Source: a virus (lineage: Duplodnaviria > Heunggongvirae > Uroviricota > Caudoviricetes). Taken from it: a stretch of 13,716 bases of DNA. Positions 3,996 through 12,558 of this stretch are shown piece by piece (within the stretch, counting starts at the first letter, position 1; every line of letters begins with the position of its first letter). The DNA lies in IMG/VR virus record IMGVR_UViG_2778261086_000003, positions 1-13,716 of that record; one strand, given 5' to 3'. The notes beneath the pieces are model-generated. The model searched no databases, was not told the DNA's origin, and saw only the letters and a list, made by a program, of their open reading frames with translations. The position numbers and the translations under genes are program-made.

Positions 3996-4080
3996 AGTCA
4001 GAGATAACAATCAACTAATACTGTTTTGTTGATTTTTGCTTGTAATTGGCGTTCTGGTCTGATTTTTGTGGAGTAAGTTG

Positions 4081-4458
4081 ATGCGTGATATTCAGATGGT
4101 TCTTGAGCGTTGGGGAGCGTGGGCGGCTAATAATCATGAAGATGTGACCTGGTCGTCCATTGCCGCCGGTTTTAAGGGATTAATTACTTCAAAAGTAAAA
4201 TCTCGCCCGCAATGTTGTGACGATGACGCGATGATTATTTGCGGGTGCATGGCCCGTCTGAAAAAGAACAACAGCGATTTGCATGATTTATTGGTGGACT
4301 ATTATGTCGGCGGCATGACTTTTATGGCGCTTGCACGTAAGCATGGGCGATCTGATTGTTGGGTTGGCAGGATGCTCCAGAAAGCTGAGGGCGTAGTGGA
4401 GGGTATGCTGATGGTGTTGGATCTCCGATTGGAGATGGATGCTGATTGTTCGAAATAA
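4081..4458 (+). CDS. quuD: late-gene antiterminator Q (QuuD-like, 125 aa)
   Basis: ATG at 4081 preceded by GGAG (4070-4073); the ORF-track start at 4066 is a TTG extension. [24 protein letters not shown]... resembles DLP12/phage-82-type Q. Followed by a terminator, as expected for the pR'/tR' arrangement. Confidence 0.8.
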
Positions 4459-4558
4459 TTAAAGGAAAAGTTGCTGTCTGATTGTCATTAGTCTAACATT
4501 TTAAATGTTGGAATCGCAACGTAGTTATTATCATATAACAGCTTGTTTCCTGATTTAG
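4459..4558 (+). promoter_or_regulatory. putative late promoter and Q-utilisation region
   Basis: Position only: in lambdoid phages pR' and qut lie between Q and tR'. Weak -35/-10 candidates (TTGCTG...TAACAT) but no confident match. Confidence 0.3.
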
Positions 4559-4585
4559 CCAGCCTCCCCAAAGGCTGGTTTTTTT
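4559..4585 (+). terminator. rho-independent terminator (tR'-like)
   Basis: Stem CCAGCCT (4559-4565), loop CCCCAA, stem AGGCTGG (4572-4578), then TTTTTTT (4579-4585). Plus-strand only; the reverse read has no U-tract. Confidence 0.65.
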
Positions 4586-4613
4586 CTAATAAGTATTATT
4601 TCGGGTAGGGATT

Positions 4614-5138
4614 TTATTGTTTAACCCATAATAATTCATTGACATTGAATCCCAACTTTTGAGCGGTTCGCACATAGTCTGCTTTTACTTTATCTGGAAT
4701 AGTTGGGGTCCTTGCCAGAATCCATAGGTATTCTCTGTTCGGACCACTGACAAGAGCATACTTATACTCATCATCCAGTTTGATTACATTATAGCCACCA
4801 TAGAAGGGGCCAAAAAACGAAACCTTCAATGCTGCAGTTTTAGTATCTCCAGTAAAGTATGCTTTACCTTCGCTCTCGCTCCATTTATTTTTCGTTGGAT
4901 CGTATCCACGGTTAAGTACACGAATCCCTCCGTCGTTCCGTTTTCCATAAGTAGCGCTGACCTGTTCCAGATCACGTTCGAACCGGTTCTCGAGGCGAGC
5001 TATTTCATACCATTTTCCGAGGTAGCGGTTGGCGTCAAAATTTGTAATCGGCTGCACACCTTTAGGTGGTGTCGGGGCCTTACATGCTATAAGAGTGAAA
5101 GAGAGTGCAATGCCAGTCAACACAGGCCATAACTTCAT
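4614..5138 (-). CDS. Blc-family bacterial lipocalin, outer-membrane lipoprotein (174 aa)
   Basis: Signal peptide with lipobox (LIAC), then lipocalin signatures (NFDANRYLGKWYEIARLENRFE...YLWILARTP). Homologous to but distinct from chromosomal Blc. Lower GC than flanking phage genes and antisense to late transcription. Confidence 0.85.
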   Translation of the reverse strand: MKLWPVLTGIALSFTLIACKAPTPPKGVQPITNFDANRYLGKWYEIARLENRFERDLEQVSATYGKRNDGGIRVLNRGYDPTKNKWSESEGKAYFTGDTKTAALKVSFFGPFYGGYNVIKLDDEYKYALVSGPNREYLWILARTPTIPDKVKADYVRTAQKLGFNVNELLWVKQ

Positions 5139-5330
5139 AATAAATCCTGTACTTTTGATAGTTGAGAGTAAGTATGAAAGATAGATGATTACGACCGATC
5201 ACTTAAAGAACTTTCATACTATATTAGGAATAGTCCATAACAGAAAAATTGTCAGTGATGACGCCAGAAAGGCAATTTATTCCGTGCACTACACAGTTTA
5301 TGTGTTAATGAATTAGTCAAGGGGGAGAAT

Positions 5331-6290
5331 ATGATAAAAAAACCTGTGATTGGAATCAGCGGTTGTTTGGCCGGTTCTGCTGTTCGTTTTGATGGTGGTC
5401 ACAAAAGAGCTGACTTTTTAATGGACAAATTAGTGGAATGGGTAACATTCAGACCAGTATGTCCGGAAATGGCTATAGGGCTGCCAGTTCCGCGTCCTGC
5501 TCTACGTCTTGTGCGCTCGACGCAAGGAAATATACGGATGTGTTTCAGCCACGACCAGAATGAGGATGTGACAGAGAGAATGACAGAGTTTAGTCGTTCT
5601 TATATGGACAAATTAAAGGATGTATCGGGGTTTGTGGTTTGTGCTAAATCTCCCAGCTGTGGCATGGAGCGCGTGCGTGTCTATGATGAAAATGGTAATC
5701 GAGGTCGTAAAGATGGAGTGGGACTATTTACGAGTACTTTGATGGAAAAGTTTTCCTGGCTACCGGTTGAAGAGGATGGGCGATTACATGATCCAGTGCT
5801 TCGTGAGAATTTTGTTGAAAGAGTTTTTGCTTTGCATGAGCTCAATCACCTTTACAAGGAGAAATTATCAAGAAGAGAGTTATTAGCTTTTCATAGTCGT
5901 TATAAGCTTCAGTTGTTGGCGCATAGTCAGGCAGGCTATAAAGATATGGGACCATTTGTGGCTGCAATACACGAGTGGGCGGACCTTGAATCATACTTTG
6001 AGGTGTATCGTGATAATCTGATGGCGATTCTCAGAAAACCAGCATCACGTAAAAATCACACGAATGTGCTGATGCATATACAGGGGTATTTTAGTAATTA
6101 CTTAAGTACACGCCAGCGTAAAGAGTTGAGCGAGGTTATACTTAACTATCGCTTTGGCACATTGCCTCTTCTTGCGCCGTTGACTCTGCTGAAGCATTAT
6201 CTGGGTGAGTATCCTAATGATTACTTGCTTACACAGAATTACTTCGATCCCTATCCGGACGAACTGGCTCTAAGACTGATGGTAAATTAA
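5331..6290 (+). CDS. DUF523-DUF1722 fusion protein (RudS/TudS-like putative thionucleoside desulfidase, 319 aa)
   Basis: N-terminus has the DUF523-type Cys pattern (GISGCLAG, PVCPE, CAKSPSCGM), consistent with a [4Fe-4S] TudS-like fold. The C-terminal ~150 aa resemble the DUF1722 (YbgA-like) domain. GGAG 4 nt before the ATG. Domain call from memory, not HMM-verified. Confidence 0.65.
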   Translation: MIKKPVIGISGCLAGSAVRFDGGHKRADFLMDKLVEWVTFRPVCPEMAIGLPVPRPALRLVRSTQGNIRMCFSHDQNEDVTERMTEFSRSYMDKLKDVSGFVVCAKSPSCGMERVRVYDENGNRGRKDGVGLFTSTLMEKFSWLPVEEDGRLHDPVLRENFVERVFALHELNHLYKEKLSRRELLAFHSRYKLQLLAHSQAGYKDMGPFVAAIHEWADLESYFEVYRDNLMAILRKPASRKNHTNVLMHIQGYFSNYLSTRQRKELSEVILNYRFGTLPLLAPLTLLKHYLGEYPNDYLLTQNYFDPYPDELALRLMVN

Positions 6291-6641
6291 TTGTATGCGA
6301 TATCATCCAAAAGGATGAGTTCCTGCATGCAGGATATTTACAATCGTAAAAACTACACTATGATACCCAGAGTGTCAGTTTGTATAAAAACTCTGTTTAC
6401 GCTGAAGAAACAATTGAGATGCAACTTAAAGTTGGTAAACATGCCAGTCAAAATATATAATATTATGATTCCACGCAGCTATATATAATATAACAGATTG
6501 GTTTAATAATTTGTCTTTGTGAGTTAAATACATAATTTTATACTTGTGATGCAATGAAATTTTCCTTATTGTTGAACTGGCGAATATTGATTTTCCACCT
6601 ATACTTACCTGGTGTAACCCCAATGATATCAGGTGGATAAT

Positions 6642-7373
6642 ATGCCATACATATGTTCTATCATTTTGGTGTTGAACTCGTTTGATGTCCGAATTGGTAA
6701 AGAAGATATTTTGTTTAAAAAAGGAAGTGCTGTTCTCATTGATTACAATTTAAAAGATTTTTTTTCATCAAATATAGATCATGTAATGATCGTAGATGTT
6801 GAAGAGAAAACAGTTAATGATTTCTTTAAAAGCAACACACTCTCACCTTTTTCTGTAAGAAGGTTTTATCCGGCATACTTGATGGTGGAATGTGAAGATT
6901 TTTCATTGTTAAAGAACTTGATTGCATGCTTGAATTGTGATGGCAGAACTGTGGATTTTGTTAGAAATCAAATATCACTTGCATGTCTTGCTATCTTATC
7001 TTCAGAGAAAATAGTGCAAAGTTTTTTATTTGGATGTCTTAATAGTTTAGGAAGTAAAGTTAAGGCTATTATTCACACGGATATATCTGCAGCATGGAGA
7101 CTTTGTGATATATCTTCAAGACTGTATCTGAGTGAAAGTCTGTTAAAAAGAAAATTAAAGCACGAAGGCTTATCATTTAGTAAGTTAATTCTTGAAGAGC
7201 GAATGGTGATGGCGGAAAGGTTATTAAGCTACAATTTATATTCTGTTGGAAAAGTTGCTGAGATATGCGGTTATGAAAACACGTCATATTTTGTAAGTGT
7301 TTTCAGAAGATATTTTGGTGTTCCTCCCCATCAATATTCATCAAGATTTTTTTTAGAAAAAGACATGATGTAA
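6642..7373 (+). CDS. AraC/XylS-family transcriptional regulator (243 aa)
   Basis: C-terminal AraC-type HTH region (LLKRKLKHEGLSFSKLILEERMVMAERLL...VGKVAEICGYENTSYFVSVFRRYFGVPPHQY). ATG at 6642 with AGGTGG 5 nt upstream; the ORF-track start at 6633 is a GTG extension. Very AT-rich gene and leader. Confidence 0.75.
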   Translation: MPYICSIILVLNSFDVRIGKEDILFKKGSAVLIDYNLKDFFSSNIDHVMIVDVEEKTVNDFFKSNTLSPFSVRRFYPAYLMVECEDFSLLKNLIACLNCDGRTVDFVRNQISLACLAILSSEKIVQSFLFGCLNSLGSKVKAIIHTDISAAWRLCDISSRLYLSESLLKRKLKHEGLSFSKLILEERMVMAERLLSYNLYSVGKVAEICGYENTSYFVSVFRRYFGVPPHQYSSRFFLEKDMM

Positions 7374-7434
7374 CGTGATGCGTTTTAATGATTTTGTAAT
7401 TTTCGTATTTGATAATTGTATGATGCTTTCAGCT

Positions 7435-7466
7435 ACGCCAGAATAATCGCTGGCGTTTTTCTTTTT
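7435..7466 (+). terminator. rho-independent terminator downstream of the AraC gene
   Basis: Stem CGCCAG (7436-7441), loop AATAATCG, stem CTGGCG (7450-7455), then TTTTTCTTTTT. Confidence 0.55.
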
Positions 7467-7561
7467 GAATAGATGTTCAAGCCTTACGCTAATGTAACTT
7501 CTATACCTTTCCTCTTCGTTCCGAACCGTGTACACCATCCGTTATTTGCGGAGGTGAGGCT

Positions 7562-7777
7562 ATGAAATCTATGGATAAGTTAACAACGGGCATTGCCTAC
7601 GGTACCTCCGCAGGCAGTGCTGGCTACTGGTTTTTACAGCTGCTCGATAAAGTCACGCCCTCACAGTGGGCAGCAATAGGTGTATTGGGTAGTCTGGTAT
7701 TTGGCCTGCTGACGTACCTGACAAACCTTTATTTCAAGATTAAAGAAGATAAGCGCAAGGCTGCGAGAGGTGAATAA
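7562..7777 (+). CDS. essD: class II holin (phage 21 S21-like pinholin, 71 aa)
   Basis: [26 protein letters not shown]...; two transmembrane segments; dual-start motif Met1-Lys-Ser-Met4. GGAGGTGAGG ribosome-binding site. Stop overlaps the endolysin ATG (TAATG). Symbol follows DLP12 naming. Confidence 0.85.
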
Positions 7778-8274
7778 TGCCTCCATCATTACGAAAAGCC
7801 GTTGCTGCGGCTATTGGTGGCGGGGCTATTGCTATAGCATCTGTGTTAATCACTGGCCCAAGTGGTAACGATGGTCTGGAAGGCGTCAGCTACATACCAT
7901 ATAAAGATATCGTTGGTGTATGGACTGTATGTTACGGGCATACCGGAAAAGACATTATGCTCGGTAAAACGTATACCGAAGCAGAATGCAAAGCCCTCCT
8001 GAATAAAGACCTTGCCACTGTCGCCAGACAAATTAACCCGTACATCAAAGTCGATATACCGGAAACAACGCGCGGCGCTCTTTACTCGTTCGTTTACAAC
8101 GTTGGTGCTGGAAATTTCAGAACATCGACGCTTCTTCGCAAAATAAACCAGGGCGATATCAAAGGCGCATGTGATCAGCTACGGCGCTGGACATACGCTG
8201 GCGGTAAGCAATGGAAAGGGCTGATGACTCGCCGTGAGATTGAGCGTGAAGTCTGTTTGTGGGGGCAACAATGA
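7777..8274 (+). CDS. rrrD: SAR endolysin (phage 21 R21-like lysozyme, 165 aa)
   Basis: N-terminal Gly/Ala-rich weakly hydrophobic SAR segment ([20 protein letters not shown]), then a T4-lysozyme-like catalytic core. Stop overlaps the next ATG (ATGA). Symbol follows DLP12 naming. Confidence 0.9.
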
Positions 8275-8503
8275 GTAGAGTAACCGCGATTATGGTTCGA
8301 AATGGGATGTTATCCGTGAACGTGTGCTCAAGCGTGACAAAGGACTGTGTCAGTTATGTCTGCGTGGTGGTGTGGTGCGTGAGGCGAAAACCGTTGACCA
8401 CATCATCCCTAAAGCACATGGCGGCACTGATGCCGACAGCAATCTGCAGAGCCTGTGCTGGCCGTGTCATAAGGCGAAGACGGCCCGTGAACGGCTGAAG
8501 TAA
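8271..8503 (+). pseudogene. Rz (spanin) start fused to the 3' fragment of an HNH endonuclease gene
   Basis: ATG at 8271 encodes MSRVTAI, identical to the first seven residues of lambda-type Rz, then diverges. A different frame (from ~8279, after an in-frame TAG at 8276-8278, to TAA 8501-8503) encodes SNRDYGSKWDVIRERVLKRDKGLCQLC...DHIIPKAHGGTDADSNLQSLCWPCHKAKTARERLK, an HNH C-terminus with no start codon. Confidence 0.6.
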
Positions 8504-8628: not shown

Positions 8629-9123
8629 ATGGCTGGAACGGCGGGGCGTTCCGGGCGTCGCCCCAAGCCAACGGCGCGCAAGGCGCTGGCCGGAAACCCC
8701 GGCAAGCGAGCCCTGAACAAAGATGAACCTGTTTTTACGCCCATCAAAGGTGTTGAGCCACCGGAGTGGTTCGCTGAAGAAGATCTCCCTCTCGCCACGA
8801 TCATGTGGCAACTGACAACCAAAGAACTCTGCGGTCAGGGCCTGCTGTGCGTGACTGACCTCGCGGTGCTTGAGCGGTGGTGCGTGGCCTATGAGTTCTG
8901 GCGACGTGCCGTGAAAAATATTGCCAGACAGGGCAACACCATCACCGGTGCAATGGGCGGCATGGTCAAAAATCCGGAGCTGACCGCCAAAAAAGAACAG
9001 GAGTCCGAGATGAGCAGCACGGGGGCAATGCTCGGACTCGACCCCAGCAGCCGTCAGCGTCTGATTGGCCTGGCGGGGCAGAAGAAAACCACTAACCCGT
9101 TTCTGAAAATCATCGAATCATGA
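8629..9123 (+). CDS. terminase small subunit (P27/HK97 gp1-like, 164 aa)
   Basis: ATG at 8629 with AGGAG 9 nt upstream; the ORF-track start at 8620 is a GTG extension. Basic N-terminus ([27 protein letters not shown]). Stop overlaps the large terminase ATG (ATGA). Confidence 0.8.
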
Positions 9124-9938
9124 GCCGGAAATCTTACCCCAACGTAAATGCTGCCAATCAGTATGCCCGGGATGTCGTGCGCGGAAAGATTGTGGCCTGC
9201 CAGTTTGTGATTCAGGCCTGCCAGCGCCATCTTGATGACCTGATGGAGGAAAAAAGTAAGTCGTTTCGTTACCGCTTCGACAAGGACCTGGCTGAACGGG
9301 CCGCGAAATTTATTCAGCTGTTGCCGCACACCAAGGGTGAGTGGGCATTTAAGAGGATGCCCATCACGCTGGAGCCGTGGCAGCTCTTTGTGATCTGCTG
9401 CGCGTTTGGCTGGGTCAATAAAGGCTCCCGGCTGCGCCGCTTCTGTGAGGTGTATACCGAAATCCCCCGTAAGAACGGCAAATCGGCAATCTCTGCCGGT
9501 GTCGCCCTGTATTGTTTTGCCTGTGATAACGAGTTTGGCGCGGAAGTGTATTCCGGTGCCACGACAGAGAAACAGGCGTGGGAAGTCTTTCGCCCGGCGC
9601 GACTGATGTGTAAACGCACACCCATGCTGACGGAAGCGTTCGGGATTGAGGTTAACGCCTCAAACATGAACCGTCCGGAGGATGGCGCGCGGTTTGAACC
9701 GCTGATCGGCAACCCCGGTGATGGTTCATCACCCCACTGTGCGGTGGTGGATGAATATCACGAGCACGCCACCGATGCGCTTTATACCACGATGCTTACC
9801 GGGATGGGGGCGCGACGTCAGCCACTGATGTGGGCCATCACCACCGCCGGGTACAACATTGAGGGGCCGTGCTACGACAAGCGGCGGGAAGTTATCGAGA
9901 TGCTCAACGGTTCGGTATCAAATCGGATGGCACGGTGA
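9120..9938 (+). pseudogene. terminase large subunit, 3'-truncated (N-terminal ATPase domain only, 272 codons)
   Basis: Walker A motif (EIPRKNGKS) and ATPase-domain sequence present. The reading frame stops after ...EMLNGSV, whereas intact large terminases are roughly twice this length. Downstream sequence switches to unrelated glycine-rich coding. Confidence 0.8.
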
Positions 9939-10600
9939 AAACGGCTCTCGAAAACCTTGGTTTGGGAGATGGCTCGGGGCGTTACAGCAAAACTGTCGTT
10001 TTTTCATCGTCGGGTTCATATACGTGGCCAGCTGACGTAAAACGAATTGACGTTATTCTGACTGCGGGGGGCGGCGGTGGCGGTGGATGTAACGCGGAGA
10101 ACGCAAATCAGACATTTTCAGGGGCTGGCGGAGGAGCCGGAGGTACTGTTTTTGCCACTATTTATGCGACAGACAACGATGCCGGGCCAGGGACCTATAC
10201 AGTGACAATTGGCAGCGGTGGTAGTGGTGCCAATGGGCCAGGGTCTGGAAATAATGGCGGTAATAGTTCGTTCATGACATTAACTGCGCTCGGCGGCCAG
10301 GGTGGGCAATGGGGCGGCGCTACAAATACCGCTGGCGGGCGCGGTGGCTCAGGCTCTGGCGGTTATAAAACTGAACAAGGCGGAGACGGTTCAGACGGAC
10401 AGGCGGGCCAGGCGCTATTAGTAGGCAATGGGGCATCGAGCTATTGGGGTGGCGGCGGCCGCGCTGGGCAACTGAGCGGTAATCCTGGAGTTTGCTCTGG
10501 CTCCGGCGGCGGGGGTGCATACGATAATAGCTATTCACACACGTCAGGACGTGGCGGGCACGGAGCTAATGGCGTGCTGGTAATTCGGGAGTTCATGTAA
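9869..10600 (+). CDS. glycine-rich tail-fibre C-terminal fragment (5' end missing; real start unknown)
   Basis: ORF of 243 codons overlapping the truncated terminase. Sequence ...[26 protein letters not shown]... followed by long GGxGG/GSG runs is characteristic of glycine-rich domains of phage tail fibres. Immediately followed by a tail fibre assembly gene. The first ~15 codons are probably terminase DNA read out of frame. Confidence 0.5.
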
Positions 10601-11293: not shown

Positions 11294-12415
11294 TTAAGAT
11301 ATTCTTTTAGCTATAGAATGACCTATATTTATAAACGGTTTTTCTATTACGTTATATATCAAGTAAGATAGGCTTATAGAAATTATGAGCGATGATATAT
11401 AAATGGCAAACGATCTATGTTCAGTGCTAATACCAATACTGGAACCGTAAAACTCAATAAACTGTATAACAGGAACATGAATCAGATAAAGTGAATATGA
11501 TATTCCACCAAGAGCAACAAGTGATTTATTGAATGAAATAACTTTATTATTTTCTAGAATAATAACACACAAAACAATCAGAAATGCAATATATGCAGAT
11601 CGCGTCAAACCATGTCCTTCAGACACCCCATTAAGCCAAAAAACAAACATCATTCCTAGAATGAAAACGCATAAACTATTTATAATAGAATTATTCATTC
11701 TTTTATGCCTAAGTAAAGGCATTGTCTCTGATATAATCATCCCTAAAATGAAATCATATACTATAGGATTGCCTATGAATCCTATATGAGAAAACACCCC
11801 TGTTTTTGCAATATTGAATGATTGGGCGTCAATTACTACCGAGTGGTTAAAGTAAAGAGAAATAATTGTACTTACAGCAACTAGAAAACATGATGTGATT
11901 AATACCCTGTATTTTATGCTTAATGACATGGATATTGCGAAAATAAAATAAAAATATATCTCGTACCCAAGTGACCATGAAACAATTAGCGTTCCCCACC
12001 CATAATATGGCGGTAGAGTTGAGACATCTAAAGGGATGAGAAGAAATGATTTTATAATATTATTTATAGAAAAAACACCACCCCATGATACGCCTGTGTA
12101 AATATTGTGGTAAAAAAGAAAAACATAAACGCTTAATACTATTGCGTAAACAGGATAAATTCTAAAAAATCTCTTTACAAGAAATGAGGCGGTATTTCTT
12201 AAAGATGTTTTTGTAAAGTTTTTAGTTGAGTATGATATTATAAATCCGCTTATTATAAAAAACAATTCAACTCCAAATATAGCATTCGCGGTTATCCTGT
12301 CCATGAAAGAACCAGGATCTACTTGCCCGAAAAGACCTCTATTATGACCAATAGCTACAGCAAGAGCTGCAATTCCACGAAGCGCTTCTATTCCGTATAA
12401 TTTATCTGTTTTCAT
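11294..12415 (-). CDS. acyltransferase-3 family integral membrane O-acyltransferase (Oac/OafA-like, ~373 aa)
   Basis: Multi-pass hydrophobic protein with the N-terminal acyltransferase-3 signature (LYGIEALRGIAALAVAIGH). Start placed at ATG 12415; the ORF-track start at 12418 is a TTG. Very AT-rich and adjacent to the integrase, as for O-antigen acetylase genes of Shigella phages. Confidence 0.85.
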   Translation of the reverse strand: MKTDKLYGIEALRGIAALAVAIGHNRGLFGQVDPGSFMDRITANAIFGVELFFIISGFIISYSTKNFTKTSLRNTASFLVKRFFRIYPVYAIVLSVYVFLFYHNIYTGVSWGGVFSINNIIKSFLLIPLDVSTLPPYYGWGTLIVSWSLGYEIYFYFIFAISMSLSIKYRVLITSCFLVAVSTIISLYFNHSVVIDAQSFNIAKTGVFSHIGFIGNPIVYDFILGMIISETMPLLRHKRMNNSIINSLCVFILGMMFVFWLNGVSEGHGLTRSAYIAFLIVLCVIILENNKVISFNKSLVALGGISYSLYLIHVPVIQFIEFYGSSIGISTEHRSFAIYISSLIISISLSYLIYNVIEKPFINIGHSIAKRIS

Positions 12416-12558
12416 CAAGTAATATAGTTAGTAGTTGATAAAATTGTTGCTGGAGTCTACCACCAAGAGCTTGGATGATCGACCAGTTAGCATCTCAAGC
12501 TGTATGCGTGAGACAAAAACGAGACACACAAAGCTTTGCAAGTCTTTGCGCTGTTTAC

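Follow-up and report, generated by a model that had tools for sequence, protein, structure and literature searches.

The Q-to-holin interval of a DLP12-type prophage

The stretch of DNA analysed here as a whole (hereafter the window; 13,716 nucleotides) is a defective DLP12-type lambdoid prophage, in which ORF reading and Pfam matches identified rusA, Q, holin and lysozyme genes on the + strand, an HNH endonuclease, a small terminase, a truncated large terminase and tail-fibre remnants 3' of the lysozyme gene, and, at the far end, an AT-rich acyltransferase gene followed by an integrase gene on the − strand. As one piece, the entire window was found in no complete E. coli genome in the complete-genome search. 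In the closest complete genome (NZ_AP027877), the same prophage adjoins intS, and a dsdA remnant, emrKY and the acid-sensing evgAS lie just past the end distal to intS; ydeO is a target activated by EvgA and YdeO is homologous to the AraC-type regulator described below, and the proximity of evgAS is probably a mere accident of prophage location. The large terminase gene of the window ends abruptly at ~9917–9938 and runs into a glycine-rich tail-fibre-like ORF (region 9120–10600, + strand). Portal, protease and partly degraded tail genes are present between the terminase and tail-fibre points in the NZ_AP027877 prophage, a comparison indicating that the window has lost its morphogenesis region and that its prophage is therefore defective. 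Unlike DLP12 and related prophages, the window lacks an Rz/spanin gene 3' of the lysozyme gene (8274–8503, + strand), where the next feature is the HNH endonuclease ORF (8324–8503).

The Q antiterminator gene (4066–4458, + strand) is DLP12 QuuD-like (Pfam Phage_antitermQ, E = 1e-50; blastn against DLP12) and the holin gene (7562–7777, + strand; Pfam Phage_holin_2_1) is essD-like. By blastn, homology to K-12 DLP12 ends at 4440 and resumes at 7551, with nmpC filling the slot in DLP12, and so the whole Q-to-holin stretch (4441–7550) was interpreted as a cargo slot. Just 3' of Q, a terminator scan located an intrinsic-terminator-like hairpin and T-run (4557–4590, + strand; 9-bp stem, 5 G-C pairs, T7 tail), a candidate tR' that possibly also serves as the terminator of the convergent blc gene. 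This cargo gene (4614–5138, − strand) encodes a Blc-type outer-membrane lipocalin (Pfam Lipocalin_2, E = 1e-43; NCBIfam Blc, 314 bits with a cut-off of 267) and is separated by a divergent intergenic region (5139–5330, GC 0.339) from a RudS-type cargo gene (5331–6290, + strand), a TudS desulfidase fused to DUF1722 (Pfam 2-thiour_desulf and DUF1722). The RudS-type protein has 93% identity to gp66 of phage 1H12, with cluster cysteines 12, 44 and 110 all present, and gp66 has been tested as RudS_vir, of the tRNA 4-thiouridine desulfidase type (PMC11417400). The remaining gene (6642–7373, + strand; hereafter the AraC gene) encodes an intact AraC/XylS-family regulator of 243 aa, placed in the PatE sub-clade by Pfam and alignments, and lies downstream of an AT-rich intergenic region (6291–6641, 351 bp, GC 0.319) identified from composition and allele alignment. 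Position 6290 is the final base of the stop codon of the upstream RudS/YbgA-like gene and 7373 the final base of the AraC stop codon.

Of 5426 complete E. coli genomes, 1045 had the blc-rudS pair on prophages and 989 (~18%; coverage ≥80%) had the three-gene module, nearly all of the 996 that possess the AraC gene. Twelve phage genomes also had the module, among them those of the isolated temperate phages 1H12 and IdasGreatGrand, and the order Q-blc-rudS-araC-holin was retained in 72 of 80 IMG/VR loci. One companion of the AraC gene in this module, a RudS-type tRNA 4-thiouridine desulfidase, is of a kind stated to be absent from E. coli (PMC11417400). When the window was compared with one Qin-like prophage, blc and rudS had 98–99% identity, the AraC gene 89%, and the AraC upstream region 91% with a 54-bp insertion; judged by these identities, the AraC unit has a history separate from that of blc-rudS. 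Relatives of the AraC protein at 64% and 56% identity are encoded alone, without blc or rudS, directly 3' of Q genes from two other Pfam families; the gene for the 56% relative is also just before a holin gene, while the contig of the 64% relative ends soon after the gene. In Sakai Sp4, psrA, too, lies downstream of Q. The recurring association is therefore between such regulators and the post-Q position rather than with blc or rudS.

Composition and predicted expression signals of the AraC gene

The sequence-only reading had described the AraC gene and a region of ~350 bp upstream as far more AT-rich than their neighbours, and this was borne out with exact coordinates: GC is 0.317 for the gene (GC3 0.262), 0.319 for the upstream region and 31.8% across 6291–7373, compared to 0.47–0.59 in the flanking phage genes and 0.49 in the window minus its two AT-rich islands. 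The other island (11294–12418, − strand; GC 0.315, GC3 0.237), the sole other stretch of the window with comparable AT-richness, adjoins the integrase gene and encodes a 374-aa Acyl_transf_3 membrane acyltransferase that is likely a surface-polysaccharide-modifying cargo gene. An insert in a conserved backbone, absent from close relatives and distinct in composition (GC 0.32 vs 0.47–0.59), the AraC gene has these characteristics of a moron. The GC of 0.318 over 6291–7373 is also in keeping with the AT content of H-NS-silenced xenogeneic DNA, and silencing of the AraC block by H-NS is plausible, based on composition and on what has been reported for appY (PMC10057817). AT-richness is a trait of the family and makes H-NS repression of the AraC gene likely. 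The high-affinity H-NS motif TCGATAAATT had no match at ≤2 mismatches within 6291–7373, a result that is uninformative either way.

Though the ORF program placed the start of the AraC gene at GTG 6633, the true start is almost certainly ATG 6642, given the Shine-Dalgarno sequence AGGTGG read directly at 6631–6636 (+ strand) and the 243-aa form in RefSeq. AGGTGG is kept in the window and in loci L009, L010, L012 and L013, the corresponding bases of patE are GGGGGG, and psrA is without AGGTGG. A predicted proximal promoter-like element (6577–6605, + strand) was recognised from the family alignment, consisting of a −35 hexamer CTGGCG (6577–6582; only 3 of 6 consensus matches), a 17-nt spacer, and a −10 hexamer TATACT (6600–6605). 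A TATA(C/A)T hexamer occurs 33–36 nt before the ATG in all seven aligned homologues, including patE and psrA, and a T(T)GG(C/T)A −35 hexamer lies 17–18 nt upstream of it in six of the seven. If this element is the promoter, the 5' UTR would be only ~30 nt, and its conservation across the family suggests that the 351 bp probably consist mainly of regulatory DNA upstream of the transcript; the earlier label of a long leader is therefore probably wrong.

A distal promoter-like site (TTTACA-16-TATGAT, 6337–6364, + strand; 10 of 12 consensus matches) is kept in three rudS-linked allele classes and missing from relatives without rudS. Directly upstream of its −35 is the palindrome/hairpin TCCTGCATGCAGGA (6321–6334, + strand), in which pairing is kept through two paired double changes in the 1H12/L010 lineage, weak support as only two lineages were compared. 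The middle of 6291–6641 varies among alleles, some of which have the 54-bp insertion and some larger deletions. At the other end of the gene, a terminator scan located an intrinsic-terminator-like hairpin and T-run (7435–7466, + strand), and the L013 homologue is also followed by a comparable hairpin and T-run. Both the element at 6577–6605 and the hairpin at 7435 are consensus predictions, and the promoter scan overall was not enriched, with 12 sites compared to 10.1 in shuffled sequence. Terminator-like hairpins 3' of Q and 3' of the AraC gene would fit the usual promoter-gene-terminator layout of a cargo cassette.

Several other candidate features were rejected. An RNA thermometer or anti-Shine-Dalgarno hairpin pairing CCACCT (6594–6599) with AGGTGG had a fold no better than that of shuffles (z = −1.15), was missing in the fold of a longer transcript, and its left arm is not kept in L012, L013 or patE; CCACCT is directly 5' of the conserved −10 hexamer and the pairing was judged to be chance. 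Two small ORFs (6291–6488, + strand; 6426–6623, − strand) were judged non-coding; the + strand frame is open in three allele classes at lengths of 65, 62 and 38 aa, and its few conserved-block substitutions fall at first and second codon positions. An Rfam search returned no match at the gathering score and only chance-level matches at E ≤ 1. Repeats that could act as AraC-type binding sites within 5100–7600 were limited to short two-copy matches. Motifs shared with the K-12 hdeA/gadE promoter regions, or common to both cargo intergenic regions, reached 12–13 of 16 positions in the best 16-mers, the same as shuffles.

The encoded regulator and its frameshift hot spot

The AraC protein has a beta-rich domain at its N-terminus and, at its C-terminus, a complete double helix-turn-helix DNA-binding domain (residues 161–237; 7122–7352, + strand), delimited by Pfam HTH_18 and the GadX DNA-binding domain 3mkl. 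The match to HTH_18 scored 54.9 bits (cut-off 33.6) and covered profile positions 2–79 of 80, with both helix-turn-helix motifs, and HTH_AraC matches as well; the ~100-residue C-terminal domain with two such motifs that defines the AraC/XylS family is present, and the earlier assignment of the gene to this family, for which a complete domain was to be expected, holds. The match to 3mkl had an E = 2.5e-20 and a model rmsd of 1.6 Å over 101 columns. End-to-end alignments without large gaps were obtained to ECs_0287 (54% identity), PsrA (39%), GadW (34%), AppY (32%) and YdeO (32%), spanning residues 1 to ~235 and including the N-terminal domain, so that the AraC protein is colinear with the PatE/Psr/GadW/YdeO/AppY regulators. 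The N-terminal C5-S6 (CS motif) and residues in both helix-turn-helix motifs are invariant across these relatives. GadX and AdiY match in the C-terminal part only, and EnvY matches weakly (29% identity, residues 43–235).

The top NCBIfam match was the YdeO model NF007407 (residues 1–236), at 127.3 bits well below its cut-off of 348, which indicates that the AraC protein, though YdeO-like in architecture, is not a YdeO orthologue. It belongs to PHROG 1450, labelled ‘unknown function’, and a literature search on its accession found no paper. Only 10 proteins reached E ≤ 1e-30 in a library of 1.84 billion representatives, and those among the matches listed that were compared with K-12 and Sakai proteins were PatE-, Psr-, YdeO-, GadW- or AppY-like. 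An AlphaFold2 model built from 13 sequences was poor (pLDDT 66.7), and the best full-length fold matches of this low-confidence model were CsvR, Rns and ToxT (Foldseek E ~4e-10).

Codons 39–42 of the AraC gene contain a T8 homopolymer (6758–6765, + strand) that genome counts and a control tract identify as a frameshift hot spot, with T7 or T9 elsewhere. The allele class of the window comprises 583 complete genomes, in which T7 and T8 versions were counted by exact matching of an 87-nt segment: the out-of-frame T7 was found in 232 and T8 in 240 (472 exact matches in total). The window's own copy is T8 and in frame. Interruption of the gene, which the sequence-only reading had named as evidence against its proposal, is thus absent from the window, where the ORF runs uninterrupted, and present as a frameshift in at least 232 of the 583 other genomes of the class. 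T7 copies that were fetched are annotated as ‘frameshifted’, with the deletion located in the 6758–6765 run. Sequencing error was considered as the source of T7 and ruled out with another T8 run of the AraC gene (7347–7354) as the control; for this tract, T7 was never matched on the window haplotype, the main haplotype gave 6 T7 compared to 346 T8, and, as it is almost invariant, the T7 allele at the first run is not an artefact. In IMG/VR, the tract counts were 6 T7, 50 T8 and 1 T9. T7 occurred on at least four haplotype clusters, interleaved with T8 haplotypes.

The run has the position of a contingency locus, a homopolymer in 5' coding sequence with length variants in both directions (T7 and T9). 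Conservation of the tract in related alleles, also characteristic of such loci, was not observed: the allele classes at 86% and 83% have a broken run, and in the 64% and 56% relatives, patE and psrA it is shorter or broken. It is therefore a recent feature of the window's allele and not a conserved device. That T8 and T7 occur at nearly 1:1 could reflect recurrent inactivation or a crude ON/OFF switch. A stronger proposal, in which slipped-strand mispairing at the run switches a global regulator of the PatE type on and off, and acid-resistance or other host programmes along with it, the ratio arising from recurrent switching under alternating selection and not one-way loss, is improbable.

Some copies of the AraC gene are cut by IS1 and others have second lesions (e.g., L097), while 71 of 80 IMG/VR copies are intact and the exact protein sequence is recorded on at least 1000 contigs. 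Between allele classes that differ by 11–13% in DNA, dN/dS was 0.23–0.27, indicating long-term purifying selection. As roughly one in two genomes of this allele class has T7 in place of T8, the gene is dispensable, and the frameshifted copies (at least 232 of 583) and those cut by IS1 suggest that any benefit is conditional.

Candidate function and relation to named regulators

The AraC gene is probably a PatE-like AraC/XylS activator, carried as cargo in the Q-to-holin slot and acting on host acid-resistance genes, a reading based on sequence homology. The PatE-like protein would bind AT-rich promoter DNA and activate host genes, the most probable targets being gadE and hdeAB in the island for glutamate-dependent acid resistance, because every characterised full-length relative has such activity. 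PatE, PsrB and AppY activate gadE/hdeA, and gadE with the acid fitness island is the common end point of PatE, PsrB, AppY, GadW and YdeO (PMC10877973, PMC10057817). At 54% identity, similarity to PatE is no guarantee that the AraC protein has the same targets. In a lysogen, the gene would be transcribed from its own weak and probably activator-dependent promoter, located ~35 nt before the ATG, and the transcript would end at its own terminator. As the AraC gene is co-oriented with Q and the lysis genes, late Q-modified transcription would be expected to read through into it as well upon prophage induction.

The earlier suggestion that the regulator controls its cargo neighbours received no positive support. 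Under this explanation, the protein would act on blc and rudS through 5139–5330, and perhaps on its own gene, and not on host acid-resistance genes. AraC-family regulators frequently adjoin their targets, and the three genes do co-travel in E. coli (989 genomes with the module, 996 with the AraC gene and 1045 with blc-rudS), with the order Q-blc-rudS-araC-holin in 72 of 80 IMG/VR loci. However, the 64% and 56% relatives, patE and psrA all occur without blc or rudS, the AraC unit and blc-rudS have separate histories in the same prophage pair (89% compared to 98–99% identity), the two intergenic regions have no common motif beyond chance, and blc and rudS are intact where the AraC gene is frameshifted. 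With the module present in 989 of the 996 E. coli genomes that have the AraC gene, regulation of the cargo genes is conceivable, though overall it appears doubtful.

Alternatively, the gene may be silent cargo, used by neither host nor phage, silenced by H-NS and being lost by mutation. The frameshift in 232 of 472 exact matches on several haplotype backgrounds, the IS1 insertions, the second lesions such as that in L097, and an extreme AT content typical of silenced DNA are all consistent with decay, but a dN/dS of 0.23–0.27 across classes that are 11–13% different in DNA, an exact in-frame allele in 240 genomes with the exact protein on at least 1000 contigs, 71 of 80 intact IMG/VR copies, and conservation of the start region, Shine-Dalgarno and promoter-like element in most of the family make this explanation improbable as well. 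A role in the phage life cycle, with the protein acting on late, lysis or lysogeny-control promoters of the phage instead of host genes, would account for a position between Q and the lysis genes, an orientation with late transcription, and the occurrence of relatives at this site in phages whose Q genes belong to three different families. The Q-to-holin slot is, however, a known cargo site (e.g., for stx) and is filled by unrelated cargo in related prophages, as by nmpC in DLP12, and K-12 DLP12 represents the same backbone without the AraC gene. The characterised relatives all have host genes as targets (PMC10877973, PMC10057817), and a life-cycle role is considered highly unlikely.

If, as the preferred reading of a PatE-like activator of host genes would have it, the AraC protein drives gadE and hdeAB, then carriage of the prophage, together with whether the gene is T8 or T7, would be a frequent but overlooked reason for strains to differ in acid tolerance. 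The more general proposal of the sequence-only reading, that AraC regulators encoded on prophages act on host genes, agrees with the closer relatives of the AraC protein, PatE and PsrA/B, which are prophage regulators that target chromosomal genes (PMC10877973, PMC10057817). Of the two prophage examples it had cited, AppY is indeed a full-length homologue (32% identity) and EnvY is poorly suited, with 29% identity confined to residues 43–235 and envY lying slightly beyond the annotated edge of DLP12 in K-12.

The closest characterised relative is PatE (z0321/ECs_0287), with 54% identity in an ungapped alignment over 235 of 243 residues; the region of the first recognition helix (ISSRLYLSESLLKRKLK) is almost the same in both. 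Sakai Sp1 is here regarded as corresponding to EDL933 OI-8. From that correspondence, and as ECs_0287 is the sole AraC-type gene in Sp1, we infer that ECs_0287 is PatE (z0321; PMC10877973). PatE resides on the EHEC O157:H7 prophage CP-933H/Sp1 and its activation of gadE and hdeAB is experimental (PMC10877973). Like the AraC gene, patE is prophage-borne and AT-rich (GC 0.35 compared to 0.32) with a promoter-like element upstream; it differs in belonging to another allele family, 46% diverged, and in being placed at the edge of a degraded prophage beside an IS fragment, not between Q and holin, and without blc or rudS as neighbours.

PsrA is a full-length homologue with 39% identity when its 237-aa ORF is used. 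The gene (ECs_1087; Sakai Sp4, L004 13678–14391) is annotated as 195 aa, and the 237-aa ORF begins 126 nt upstream; as the longer ORF aligns with the N-termini of the relatives, the annotated start is probably too far downstream. Like the AraC gene, psrA follows the Q antiterminator gene of a lambdoid prophage (Sakai Sp4), though it is less AT-rich (GC 0.42). PsrA and PsrB are EHEC prophage-encoded secretion regulators that are reported to raise GadE, and in LEE-positive strains psrA/psrB are linked to loci for type III effectors and to the pch regulator genes (PMC10877973). Unlike psrA/psrB, the AraC gene is widespread in commensal and assorted clinical E. coli.

The K-12 regulators AppY, GadW and YdeO have the same two-domain architecture and are colinear with the AraC protein at about 31–34% identity, but it is not orthologous to any of them. 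Of these, appY has the same GC as the AraC gene (0.317) and is also prophage-borne, in DLP12, where it is located at the far end beside ompT and outside the Q-to-holin slot. Rns, CsvR and ToxT are more distant, with a sequence match to the linker and DNA-binding domain (E ~5e-17), only 17–21% identity, and TM-scores of ~0.4 that derive from the low-confidence model. The prophage AraC regulators studied to date (AppY, PatE and PsrA/B) come from K-12 and EHEC O157 and join the E. coli acid-resistance network. On the basis of these alignments, the AraC gene is a widespread, uncharacterised member of this prophage-encoded PatE/Psr/AppY group, an unnamed relative that, occurring in ~18% of complete E. 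coli genomes and in isolated temperate phages, is far more widespread than AppY, PatE or PsrA/B.
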